A DNA stretch of 31,446 nucleotides from IMG/VR virus record IMGVR_UViG_2872698443_000005; one strand, 5' to 3'. This stretch comes from a virus. Lineage: Duplodnaviria; Heunggongvirae; Uroviricota; Caudoviricetes. The position numbers were made by a program, and so were the translations under genes. Of the stretch, positions 3,554 through 10,961 are shown piece after piece. Numbering within the stretch: position 1 is the stretch's first letter; each line of letters opens with the position of its first letter. Under the pieces are notes generated by a model that was not told where the DNA came from, did not search any database, and worked only from the letters and a program-made list of their open reading frames with translations.

Positions 3554-3769
3554 ATGAAATCAATGGATAAGTTAACAACAGGTGTTGCCTATGGCACATC
3601 GGCGGGTAATGCTGGTTTCTGGGCATTGCAGTTACTCGATAAAGTAACTCCGTCACAGTGGGCTGCAATCGGTGTGCTGGGTAGCCTGGTTTTTGGCCTG
3701 CTGACGTATCTGACAAATCTTTATTTCAAGATTAAAGAAGACAGGCGTAAGGCTGCGAGAGGAGAGTAA
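3554..3769 (+). CDS. Class II holin / pinholin (phage 21 S-like), dual-start motif MKSMDK
   Basis: [28 protein letters not shown]...[35 protein letters not shown]: two transmembrane segments, charged C-terminus, Met1-Lys-x-Met4 dual start. First gene of the lysis cassette. Confidence 0.85.
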
Positions 3770-3773
3770 TCCA

Positions 3774-4081
3774 ATGACTCAAGACTATGAACTGGTTGTG
3801 AAAGGAGTCCGTAATTTTGAGAATAAAGTTACGGTAACTGTAGCCTTACAGGACAAAGAACGCTTTGACGGTGAAATTTTTGGCCTGGATGTCGCCATGG
3901 ACCGTGTTGAAGGAGCTGCGCTGGAGTTTTATGAGGCAGCAGCCAGAAGGAGCGTCCGGCAAGTCTTCCTGGAAGTAGCAGAAAAATTGTCAGAAAAAGT
4001 TGAGTCTTATCTGCAGCATCAGTACTCCTTTAAGATTGAAAATCCTGCCAATAAGCACGAACGTCCTCATCATAAATATAT

Positions 4082-4085
<4 letters not shown>
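3774..4085 (+). CDS. ydfR: Uncharacterised 103-aa protein between holin and endolysin (YdfR-like)
   Basis: ORF with a good RBS (gagaggagag) 5 nt after the holin stop; its stop overlaps the endolysin start (ATGA). No recognisable catalytic motif. Confidence 0.55.
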
Positions 4086-5109
<1,024 letters not shown>

Positions 5110-5339
5110 GGTAATATTAAATCGGAACATTTACATCGCGGAATGTAAAATTTAAATAAAAAGGACTCTTCCATGAGTCAAAATTCCTGAAATCTTAAGG
5201 GTAAGATAAAAGGTCTTAATCAGAATGACACGTTTTATTAATAAATAAAGCTATTCTTTCATTGCTGTGTTTTTCTTTACAAAAGTAATCCTTGCTATGG
5301 GTGGTTAATCATGCGTTAATGGTGTTCTGGTTTGTTACA

Positions 5340-5370
5340 AATTTATCTGAAGCAGTCATTGTTATAATTT
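5340..5370 (+). promoter_or_regulatory. Candidate sigma70 promoter with extended -10 (TGtTATAAT) upstream of the cold-shock gene
   Basis: tgttataat at 5360-5368 inside an AT-rich region; it would give a 5' UTR of about 100 nt, as is typical for csp genes. The -35 element is weak. Confidence 0.3.
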
Positions 5371-5472
5371 TATTATTTGTACCTCTTGAGATTTCCTTGT
5401 TGGTTTTTCTCTCTGATATTTTTTTTTCGGACCATTCTGCCCAAGGGCTAATTTCTTCAAAAGGTAATAATT

Positions 5473-5685
5473 ATGTCTAACAAAATGACTGGTTTAGTGA
5501 AATGGTTTAACCCTGAAAAAGGTTTTGGTTTCATCACGCCGAAAGATGGCAGCAAAGATGTGTTTGTCCATTTCTCAGCAATTCAGAGCAACGATTTCAA
5601 AACATTAACTGAGAATCAGGAAGTTGAATTTGGTATTGAGAACGGACCTAAAGGCCCTGCCGCTGTTCATGTAGTGGCGCTTTGA
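5473..5685 (+). CDS. cspI: Cold-shock protein, CspA family (CspI-like)
   Basis: 70-aa [26 protein letters not shown]...FVHFSAI with the RNP1/RNP2 motifs of cold-shock domain proteins. Confidence 0.9.
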
Positions 5686-5717
5686 GGTAGACAATATTAC
5701 AAACCATATTCACTTTA

Positions 5718-8649: not shown

Positions 8650-10712
8650 TGCTGAATCAGGAAACCGCAAAGGCAGCACGAACCGATTCAGGTTATATCC
8701 TTCGCGCACCGAGACGAATGCGGGTTGCTGATGCCGTTGCTCAGTATATGCGGGTGCCCATGGGGGCAGGGAACTCAGTCCCGTGGGATCCGCTGGTGGC
8801 ACCGTATGTTATTGAGCCTATGAACTGCCTGGCCTCGCGTGAATACGACGCAGTGATATTTGTTGGCCCGGCACGAACCGGCAAGACTATCGGCCTGATT
8901 GACGGCTGGGTGATTTACAACGTGATTTGCGATCCTGCTGATATGCTGATCATTCAGATGACGGAGGAAAAAGCCCGCGAACACTCCAAAAAACGACTCG
9001 CCAGAACGTTTCGCGTCAGCCCGGAAGTGGTCAGTCGCCTGAGTCCGAACAAAAATGACAACAACGTTTATGACAGAACATTCCTTGCTGGCAACTACCT
9101 GAAAATCGGCTGGCCGTCAGTCAATATCATGTCTTCATCAGATTATAAATGCGTGGCGCTGACGGATTATGACCGTTTTCCGGAAGATATTGATGGTGAG
9201 GGGGATGCCTTCTCTCTTGCCTCAAAACGTACCACCACATTTATGTCCAGTGGTATGACGCTGGTGGAGAGTTCCCCCGGCAGGGATGTGAAGGATGTGA
9301 AATGGCGACGGACTTCACCGCATGAGGCTCCACCAACCACGGGGATCCTGTCGCTCTATAACCGTGGCGATCGCCGTCGCTGGTACTGGCCCTGTCCACA
9401 CTGTGGTGAGTATTTTCAGCCCTGCGGCGATGTGGTTGCTGGTTTCCGTGATATTGCCGATCCTGTGCTGGCAAGTGAGGCGGCTTATATTCAGTGTCCT
9501 TCCTGTTCAGGACGGATTTTGCCTGAACAAAAACGCGAGCTGAACGGACGTGGGGTCTGGTTACGGGATGGTGAATCCATCAATGCAGATGGCAGTCGTT
9601 ATGGTGATCCCCGGCGTTCACGTATTGCGTCATTCTGGATGGAGGGGCCGGCAGCTGCTTATCAGACACTCTCGCAACTCGTTTACAAACTGCTTACTGC
9701 AGAACAGGAATACGAGACAACCGGAAGTGAAGAGACACTCAAGACGGTTATCAATACCGACTGGGGATTACCTTATCTTCCCCGCGCCAGCATGGAGCAA
9801 CGAAAAAGTGAATTGCTTGAGCAGCGGGCAGAGCCAGTTCCTTCCCGCAGTGTGCCGGATGGCGTTAATTTCCTTGTGGCGATAGTGGATGTGCAGGCGG
9901 GACGTCATCGCCGTTTTGTGGTTCAGGTAACGGGCTATGGCAGCCGTGGCGAACGCTGGATTATTGATCGTTACAACATCACGCAGTCATTGCGCGGTGA
10001 CAGCGACGGGGAGAGCCAGCGAATTGATCCGGCCAGCTATCCGGAAGACTGGGATGTCCTGCTGACGGATGTTTTTCATAAAAGCTGGCCGCTGGCCTCC
10101 GATCCTTCTCAACAAATGCGACTGATGGCAATGGCGGTGGACTCCGGCGGTGAAGACGGGGTCACTGATAATGCCTATAAATTCTGGCGTCGTTGCCGTC
10201 GTGATGGCCTTGGTAAACGTATTTACCTGTTTAAGGGCGACAGCATCCGGCGCGCAAAACTGATCACCCGTACATTCCCTGATAACACCGGACGAACGGG
10301 CCGACGGGCGCAGGCCGCAGGTGATGTACCGCTCTGGCTTCTTCAGACGGATGCCCTGAAAGACCGGGTGAATAACGCGTTATGGCGTGACTCGCCAGGT
10401 CCCGGCTATGTGCATTTCCCTGACTGGCTGGGGAGCTGGTTTTACGACGAACTGACGTATGAAGAGCGGAGCAGTGACGGGAAATGGAGTAAGCCGGGTC
10501 GCGGTGCCAACGAAGCTTTTGACCTGATGGTGTATGCCGAGGCTCTGGTCATTCTGCATGGATACGAAAAGATCCGCTGGCCGGATGCACCGGAGTGGGC
10601 GAGTCGGGAAACCTGGCTGGAGTGTGTCCCGGACAGTACCGAACCGTCACCCACACCGGAACCGGTATCCACGCCTGTTAAAAAAACAAAAACGGAAGAA
10701 AACAGTAACTGA
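8649..10712 (+). CDS. Terminase large subunit (lambda gpA family)
   Basis: 687-aa ORF with a Walker A motif (GPARTGKT) and a CPHCGE Zn-ribbon-like motif recalled from lambda gpA. Confidence 0.9.
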   Translation: MLNQETAKAARTDSGYILRAPRRMRVADAVAQYMRVPMGAGNSVPWDPLVAPYVIEPMNCLASREYDAVIFVGPARTGKTIGLIDGWVIYNVICDPADMLIIQMTEEKAREHSKKRLARTFRVSPEVVSRLSPNKNDNNVYDRTFLAGNYLKIGWPSVNIMSSSDYKCVALTDYDRFPEDIDGEGDAFSLASKRTTTFMSSGMTLVESSPGRDVKDVKWRRTSPHEAPPTTGILSLYNRGDRRRWYWPCPHCGEYFQPCGDVVAGFRDIADPVLASEAAYIQCPSCSGRILPEQKRELNGRGVWLRDGESINADGSRYGDPRRSRIASFWMEGPAAAYQTLSQLVYKLLTAEQEYETTGSEETLKTVINTDWGLPYLPRASMEQRKSELLEQRAEPVPSRSVPDGVNFLVAIVDVQAGRHRRFVVQVTGYGSRGERWIIDRYNITQSLRGDSDGESQRIDPASYPEDWDVLLTDVFHKSWPLASDPSQQMRLMAMAVDSGGEDGVTDNAYKFWRRCRRDGLGKRIYLFKGDSIRRAKLITRTFPDNTGRTGRRAQAAGDVPLWLLQTDALKDRVNNALWRDSPGPGYVHFPDWLGSWFYDELTYEERSSDGKWSKPGRGANEAFDLMVYAEALVILHGYEKIRWPDAPEWASRETWLECVPDSTEPSPTPEPVSTPVKKTKTEENSN

Positions 10713-10748
10713 CGATGTTAACCCCTGGCTGACTTCCGGAGGATGGTT

Positions 10749-10961
10749 ATGAATCAGAATGATATTGAAGCCATGATTCAGCGTTATACGGAAGCTGAAA
10801 TGGCGGTGCTGGACGGAAAATCCGTCACTTTTAATGGTCAGCAGATGACCATGGAAAACTTATCTGAGATCCGGCAGGGGCGGCAGGAGTGGGAGCGCCG
10901 CCTTGCGGCTCTGATTACACGACGACGGGGGCATCCCGGGTACCGGCTGGCGAGGTTCTGA
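10749..10961 (+). CDS. Head-tail joining protein (gpW-like)
   Basis: 70-aa ORF located between terminase and portal as in lambda; RBS ggagga 5 nt upstream; stop overlaps the portal ATG (ATGA). Confidence 0.65.
   Translation: MNQNDIEAMIQRYTEAEMAVLDGKSVTFNGQQMTMENLSEIRQGRQEWERRLAALITRRRGHPGYRLARF

Follow-up and report, generated by a model that had tools for sequence, protein, structure and literature searches.

The gene at positions 3774-4085 of the virus record IMGVR_UViG_2872698443_000005 (Caudoviricetes; 31,446 nucleotides (nt); hereafter the window, meaning the whole stretch of DNA that was analysed) is ydfR (b1555, UniProt P76160) of the Escherichia coli Qin-type prophage, and both the gene and its family were already known. 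The reading that we favour, with a probability of roughly 0.55, is that ydfR is an accessory late-operon gene whose product binds a cytoplasmic host factor through a soluble domain and acts outside the lysis pathway. Three points are new here: the overlap of ydfR with the endolysin gene originated by a deletion; the conserved unit of the protein coincides with the fragment that was reported to bind RNase E; and relatives that consist of the domain only are found outside lysis cassettes. The comparative picture directs attention to RNase E and to RNA decay late in infection, and away from the lysis clock.

Identity of the gene and its family

The original prediction, made from the DNA letters alone, described an open reading frame (ORF) of 103 amino acids (aa) between the holin and endolysin genes, with a strong ribosome-binding site and with an ATGA overlap with the endolysin start. 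The ORF was present exactly so: the AGGAG was found at 3760-3764, 9 nt from the ATG at 3774 (the holin TAA is at 3767-3769), and the TGA of ydfR (4083-4085) and the ATG of the endolysin gene (4082-4084) share the ATGA. The ORF had also been said to carry no recognisable motif, which was wrong, since it is a full-length member of DUF1327 (PF07041; bit score 176.3, gathering cut-off 25, E = 1.4e-52, covering positions 1-93 of the 93 in the profile) and since ydfR is annotated in thousands of genomes. The ORF also matched five PHROG families, every one labelled 'unknown function', and NCBIfam held no family for it. The full-length Pfam match, together with the pairwise ratios of nonsynonymous to synonymous substitution rates (dN/dS) of the N-terminal domain against diverged alleles (0.25-0.47), argues that ydfR is a real gene and no chance ORF; these comparisons show that it truly codes for a protein and that purifying selection on it is moderate. 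The possibility of a chance or decaying frame was likewise ruled out by the dN/dS below 0.5 and by the conservation across genera.

The 1.8-kilobase cassette of the window is 100% identical to that of E. coli S163-2, and the cassette was found, at least 80% covered, in 2085 of the 5426 complete E. coli genomes, in which the NCBI Prokaryotic Genome Annotation Pipeline (PGAP) gives 'ydfR: DUF1327 domain-containing protein' or 'YdfR family protein'. Complete phage genomes in which the endolysin gene is intact show this arrangement too (Tritos, 99% identity; mEp460_ev081, 97%). Homologues proved scarce and of narrow distribution: about 267 were recovered from 5.8 billion proteins by a word-indexed search, and 97 reached E<=0.001 when 1.84 billion cluster representatives were searched exhaustively with a profile. 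The family comprises small DUF1327 proteins of lambdoid phages and prophages of Enterobacterales. Among species-representative genomes, the only carriers of ydfR were Escherichia coli, E. ruysiae, E. albertii and Shigella; some Salmonella proteins likewise belong to the DUF1327 family. Two metagenome-assembled genomes labelled Veillonella (parvula) and Bacillota (L007 and L009) also matched, with an E. coli-type cassette and a YdfR 82-99% identical; these contigs are most likely mis-binned contigs of Enterobacterales prophages.

A literature search on DUF1327, b1555/P76160 and essQ/rrrQ found no functional study besides one paper (Göpel et al., RNA Biol 2026; PMC13232886) and a screen list (PMC3879167), both of which are treated below. 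The gene is a rediscovery, and belongs to the 'y-ome' (genes without assigned function).

Distribution inside and outside lysis cassettes

The accessory nature of ydfR is indicated by its distribution. In tblastn searches of phage records, the P21-type holin was found in 438 records, and a YdfR-like protein was detectable in 100 of these; among the Stx2a (Shiga toxin 2a)-converting phage records with this holin, the number was 2 of 124. The DLP12 prophage of K-12 is without ydfR, and its essD directly abuts rrrD. A core lysis component would be present wherever its cassette type is present, and this was not the pattern of ydfR.

In addition, the exhaustive search recovered relatives of 72-94 aa that consist of the domain only (E = 1e-9 to 1e-3); the named ones came from Yersinia, Serratia and Sodalis, and the rest from metagenome contigs. 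Their genes were located between gpM and gpL, before gpL, between gpL and gpK, between the tail chaperone and tape measure genes, between gpI and gpJ, and upstream of the terminase genes. These scattered slots in late operons, together with the patchy presence in cassettes of the same type, argue for a mobile accessory gene and against a dedicated lysis protein. The gene is accessory and yet embedded both transcriptionally and translationally, with its Shine-Dalgarno (SD) sequence inside the holin gene.

Conserved domain and variable tails

Conservation in the family is limited to residues 1-75, and the C-terminal parts differ in kind, so that the proteins range from 103 to 296 aa overall. Among 20 diverse members from Escherichia, Shigella and Salmonella, the invariant residues were Y5, E6, L7, V9, K10, G11, N14, V21, E46, G47, 50-LEFYEA-55, A57 and A69; in the wider family, only M1, Y53 and E54 were invariant. 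The YdfR of the window carries the core residues of the family (Y5, FYE/YYE at 52-54, and A57) and aligned without gaps over the 72-residue domain. In the AlphaFold2 model (built with an alignment of 32 sequences), the core had predicted local distance difference test values of 82-97, with strands at 5-14, 18-27 and 34-43 and a helix at 50-85, and the end was disordered. The core is thus predicted to be a two-layer beta-beta-beta-alpha unit, with no convincing structural relative; Foldseek against viral models gave no match at E<=0.001. The PDB sequence search with the family profile gave nothing below E = 0.3, and PADLOC gave no match for ydfR.

The maximum hydropathy of YdfR in a 19-residue window (Kyte-Doolittle) was 0.67, with no transmembrane (TM) segment and no signal peptide; the N-terminal domain is acidic (isoelectric point (pI), 4.8), and the 103-aa form ends in a short basic tail. 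From this hydropathy and pI, YdfR is predicted to be soluble and cytoplasmic.

The domain and its tails may be encoded apart. In a Stx-phage-like locus of E. coli (L111, 4100-5903), the order was the holin gene, a gene for 217 aa, a gene for a very distant DUF1327-like protein of 75 aa, and the lysozyme gene, and the 217-aa protein is equivalent to the module that forms the C-terminal part of long DUF1327 proteins; this layout indicates that the domain and the tail modules can be separate genes, and in permuted order.

Possible target in the host

The host factor is suggested by one experimental study. In a bacterial adenylate cyclase two-hybrid screen with RNase G (Rng) as bait, ydfR codons 1-72 were recovered three times; the 1-72 fragment also interacted with RNase E constructs, and full-length YdfR interacted with Rne(1-597) (PMC13232886). 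Strep-YdfR co-purified FLAG-tagged Rne(1-598) from lysate, DNase-resistant nucleic acid co-purified with Strep-YdfR, and ydfR was essentially silent in exponential K-12 cultures (PMC13232886). The RNase E-binding fragment (1-72) is the conserved domain, which makes the interaction more credible as a property of the family.

On the favoured reading, ydfR, as an optional passenger of the late operon, would be expressed together with the lysis and virion proteins, and YdfR would act in the cytoplasm on a host factor, neither forming part of the holin/endolysin/spanin pathway nor regulating it. The sole target with experimental support is RNase E (and RNase G), to which residues 1-72 bind at the catalytic N-terminal half. 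The most likely action of YdfR may be to let the phage modulate RNase E-dependent RNA decay in late infection, which we propose tentatively. A more specific form of this proposal is doubtful: the 75-residue DUF1327 domain might be a phage module, shaped like a double-stranded-RNA-binding domain, with the catalytic half of RNase E/G as its docking site, that has spread among the lambdoid phages of Enterobacterales as a late-operon passenger (alone or with variable tails), and that reprograms late RNA decay; if this were true, the effect could be, for example, protection of the long late transcript.

It is unlikely that YdfR is instead a small, acidic protein that inhibits a different host or defence protein (for anti-defence or host takeover), with the RNase E signal being incidental. 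The small size, the acidity, the restriction to phages and the variable 'accessory' slots in late operons would suit such an inhibitor, but neither PADLOC nor the PDB gave a sequence match, and no experimental hint points to another target; for RNase E, two methods detected binding (PMC13232886).

Several points weigh against the favoured reading. The RNase E link comes from one paper, which lacks a nuclease-treated in vitro pull-down for YdfR, and the contact could be bridged by RNA; the acidic domain (pI 4.8) is itself unlikely to bind RNA directly; and few transcriptome changes were seen on overexpression of YdfR (PMC13232886). The relatives in tail modules are distant (19-36% identity) and may have diverged in function. 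No promoter-like or terminator-like site was found flanking ydfR, so that it is not a moron in the strict sense. Finally, the junction between the holin gene (S) and ydfR was invariant in all of the 93 loci compared, and all Escherichia-type homologues lie in cassettes with a pinholin and a signal-anchor-release (SAR) endolysin, so that a lysis-linked role is possible.

Possible role in lysis timing

Such a role would be that of a cytoplasmic regulator: YdfR might bind the pinholin at its charged cytoplasmic C-terminus, or the SAR endolysin while this is still unreleased, and thereby tune the moment of lysis, with a logic perhaps analogous to that of T4 RIII acting on the holin T. One point in its favour is synteny. 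In each of the 93 loci, the DUF1327 ATG follows the holin stop at a distance of 3-4 nt (apart from minor variants, the junction reads GGAGAG-TAA-nnnn-ATG throughout), the SD lies inside the holin gene and a lysozyme gene follows downstream; the ydfR of the window and that of K-12 Qin have the same position, after the P21-type holin and before the lysozyme. The very distant 75-aa relative in E. coli likewise stands between S and the endolysin gene (R).

Other evidence speaks against it. The gene was undetected in about three quarters of the phage records with this holin and is absent from DLP12, and the domain-only relatives occur in tail modules; none of the five PHROG families is labelled as lysis, and the coupling to R is a deletion scar (see below). 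An antiholin would be expected to have a TM segment or to be an N-extended product of the holin gene, and YdfR is a separate ORF of low hydropathy. Moreover, the holin gene of the window has its own dual-start (antiholin) motif, Met1-Lys-Ser-Met4, encoded at 3554-3565. In phage 21, the dual start of S is known to yield the antiholin S71 and the holin S68. A holin gene with the Met1/Met4 dual start has less need for a further antiholin.

The remaining point in favour is that ydfR is on the hit list of a high-throughput screen for envelope leakiness (PMC3879167, supplement; the screen is cited by PMC13232886). The hit was listed without validation, and other genes of Qin (ydfU, ydfA, ydfB and ydfD) also scored, which fits an effect of the cassette; the ydfR hit may be explained by a polar effect of the resistance cassette on rrrQ. 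Furthermore, overexpression of YdfR caused no growth defect (PMC13232886). Taken together, a regulator of lysis timing is rather improbable. The lysis roles that the original prediction had offered for the gene (lysis timing, antiholin-like regulation, or an endolysin chaperone) are weakened by the same evidence; a lack of effect on host physiology had been named there as a result that would speak against them, and the published overexpression, with no growth defect and few changed transcripts, goes part of the way.

Origin of the overlap with the endolysin gene

The ATGA overlap is confined to the 103-aa form; the forms of 104, 114, 169, 174, 183 and 206 aa stop 51-360 nt before R. When the window was aligned with the 174-aa form, the two were colinear to codon ~99, where a gap of 583 nt begins, and the match resumed in the final bases of the R leader. 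At 4065..4081, the ydfR frame (...CCTCATC) is joined to a remnant of the endolysin leader (ATAAATAT..), giving the tail HKYI* and the ATGA; since the match resumes within the R leader after the gap, HKYI and the stop are encoded by what was formerly the endolysin leader. The leader is GATAAATCCTGATAAATATCC-ATG in most of the other forms compared, and a deletion is therefore the parsimonious direction of the change. As the alignment shows, the 103-aa form descends from a 174-aa form through the loss of 583 bp, in which the C-terminal half of the protein and the spacer ahead of R disappeared; the deleted segment included a small ORF on the opposite strand. Translational coupling to the endolysin gene, as described in the original prediction, is for this reason a scar of the 103-aa form and not a feature of the family.

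The 103-aa form is very unlikely to serve mainly as an upstream reading frame that hands terminating ribosomes to an SD-less endolysin start, its product mattering little: the ATGA overlap is present, no SD is visible in the 20 nt before the R start, and the arrangement persists in 70-odd loci and in complete phages whose R is intact, but the R leader of the longer forms is also without an obvious SD although R there begins 51-360 nt from the upstream stop, so that coupling is not required, and the N-terminal domain is under purifying selection at the protein level and conserved across genera.

No SD sequence was visible before R at 4060-4081 of the window, nor in the GATAAATCCTGATAAATATCC-ATG leader of the other variants (L002-L012). 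In most relatives (L094-L109, L004, L011, L012 and L092), a small convergent ORF on the opposite strand (70-182 aa) was observed within about 10-45 nt past the DUF1327 gene. These ORFs were considered as one conserved partner family, which was rejected because two or more groups without relationship were distinguished among them (hhalign probability, 1.5%); the pattern is thus positional, with no conserved partner gene. The label 'DUF1823' on the opposite-strand ORF of PhiR12_2 was below the Pfam threshold.

Condition of the window copy and neighbouring features

The window is a defective Qin-like prophage that retains the structural genes, and its lysis cassette is a fossil. The order begins with rspB, cut short by IS1 and an IS3-family element, and continues with ynfU, the lysis cassette, small genes (those for cold shock among them), a large terminase gene with a frameshift, and a complete head/tail set. 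IS1 and then the IS3-family element replace the early/regulatory side of the prophage; the antiterminator gene Q and cspB, which lie upstream of the cassette in Qin and Tritos, are missing, and the late promoter has been lost as well. Together with the frameshift in the large terminase (TerL) gene, these lesions fall at 1-2950 and about 8650-10750; the genes for head and tail, lom, the tail-fibre gene and pin appear intact. In rrrQ, TGG, as found in K-12, has changed to TGA at 4502-4504 (W141*), and the frame then runs on to 4615; among the 59 fetched loci with this region, the TGA was found in the S163-2 copy only.

In intact relatives such as Tritos, ydfR sits in the Q-dependent late operon with S and R, and a ydfR of this type would therefore be made late in infection. 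To this extent the original claim that the gene is co-expressed at lysis holds. For the copy in the window, the nonsense codon in rrrQ, the loss of Q and the late promoter to the IS1/IS3 replacement, and the frameshift in the TerL gene make it untenable; this ydfR is a remnant and is probably hardly expressed.

The coordinates of the features are given in Table 1. The N-terminus of the rrrQ lysozyme of the window is hydrophobic. The Rfam scan in and near ydfR gave no RNA element except the cspA thermoregulator (RF01766, full length, 112.9 bits) at 5326-5712, which precedes cspI just downstream of the spanin genes.

Table 1. Features of the ydfR locus in the window
Feature	Position	Strand	Description and basis
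ydfR ORF	3774..4085	+	103 aa, DUF1327 family; PF07041 E=1.4e-52 and PGAP 'ydfR: DUF1327 domain-containing protein' in 100%-identical genomes
ydfR Shine-Dalgarno AGGAG	3760..3764	+	Within the final holin codons; read from the sequence
DUF1327 core domain, aa 1-75 of ydfR	3774..3998	+	Alignments, AlphaFold2 model, dN/dS
Holin, essQ/essD-type class II (P21-type)	3554..3769	+	71 aa; PF04971 E=4.4e-34; DNA identical to K-12 essQ
Deletion junction at the ydfR 3' end	4065..4081	+	Alignment to the 174-aa form, 583-nt gap
rrrQ SAR-type lysozyme pseudogene	4082..4615	+	PF00959; in-frame TGA at 4502-4504 (W141*); PGAP 'internal stop'
rzpQ i-spanin (DUF2514)	4612..5109	+	PF10721 E=7.7e-39; phrog_312 Rz-like spanin; K-12 coordinates transferred
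rzoQ o-spanin, embedded in rzpQ in the +1 frame	4805-5059	+	K-12 coordinates transferred; ORF with lipobox LTSC

Comparison with known systems

The closest known system is Qin of K-12 MG1655, a cryptic prophage that shares the gene order (essQ-ydfR-rrrQ-rzpQ/rzoQ-cspI) and the ATGA overlap of the window; the ydfR genes differ by 3 nt and the proteins by 2 aa (D37G and L103I). The window differs from Qin in the W141* of rrrQ and in the replacement of the Q/cspB side by IS1 and IS3, and its prophage keeps the head and tail genes.

Lambdoid phages, the Stx-converting ones included, also encode longer DUF1327 proteins (114 aa in H-19B, 169 aa in PhiR12_2, and forms of 174-296 aa), which share the N-terminal domain and the position after the holin gene with the protein of the window. 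These longer proteins add C-terminal modules, namely a coiled-coil segment and a 'KKRRDEQFAAFYDYC' module, which the window form has lost by deletion.

Antiholins, such as the dual-start product S21-71 and RI and RIII of T4, are, like YdfR, encoded beside the holin and expressed with it. Unlike them, YdfR is a separate soluble protein without a TM segment, it is not found in most cassettes of this type, and the holin gene next to it already has the dual start.

T4 Srd, phiKZ Dip, RraA/RraB and RapZ are phage or host proteins that bind RNase E. YdfR does not belong to the families of RraA, RraB, Srd, Dip or RapZ, as the Pfam, NCBIfam, PHROGs and PDB sequence searches yielded only DUF1327 or 'unknown function'. 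If the binding of YdfR is functional, the logic would be similar to that of these proteins, in that a small protein docks on RNase E and thereby alters RNA decay.
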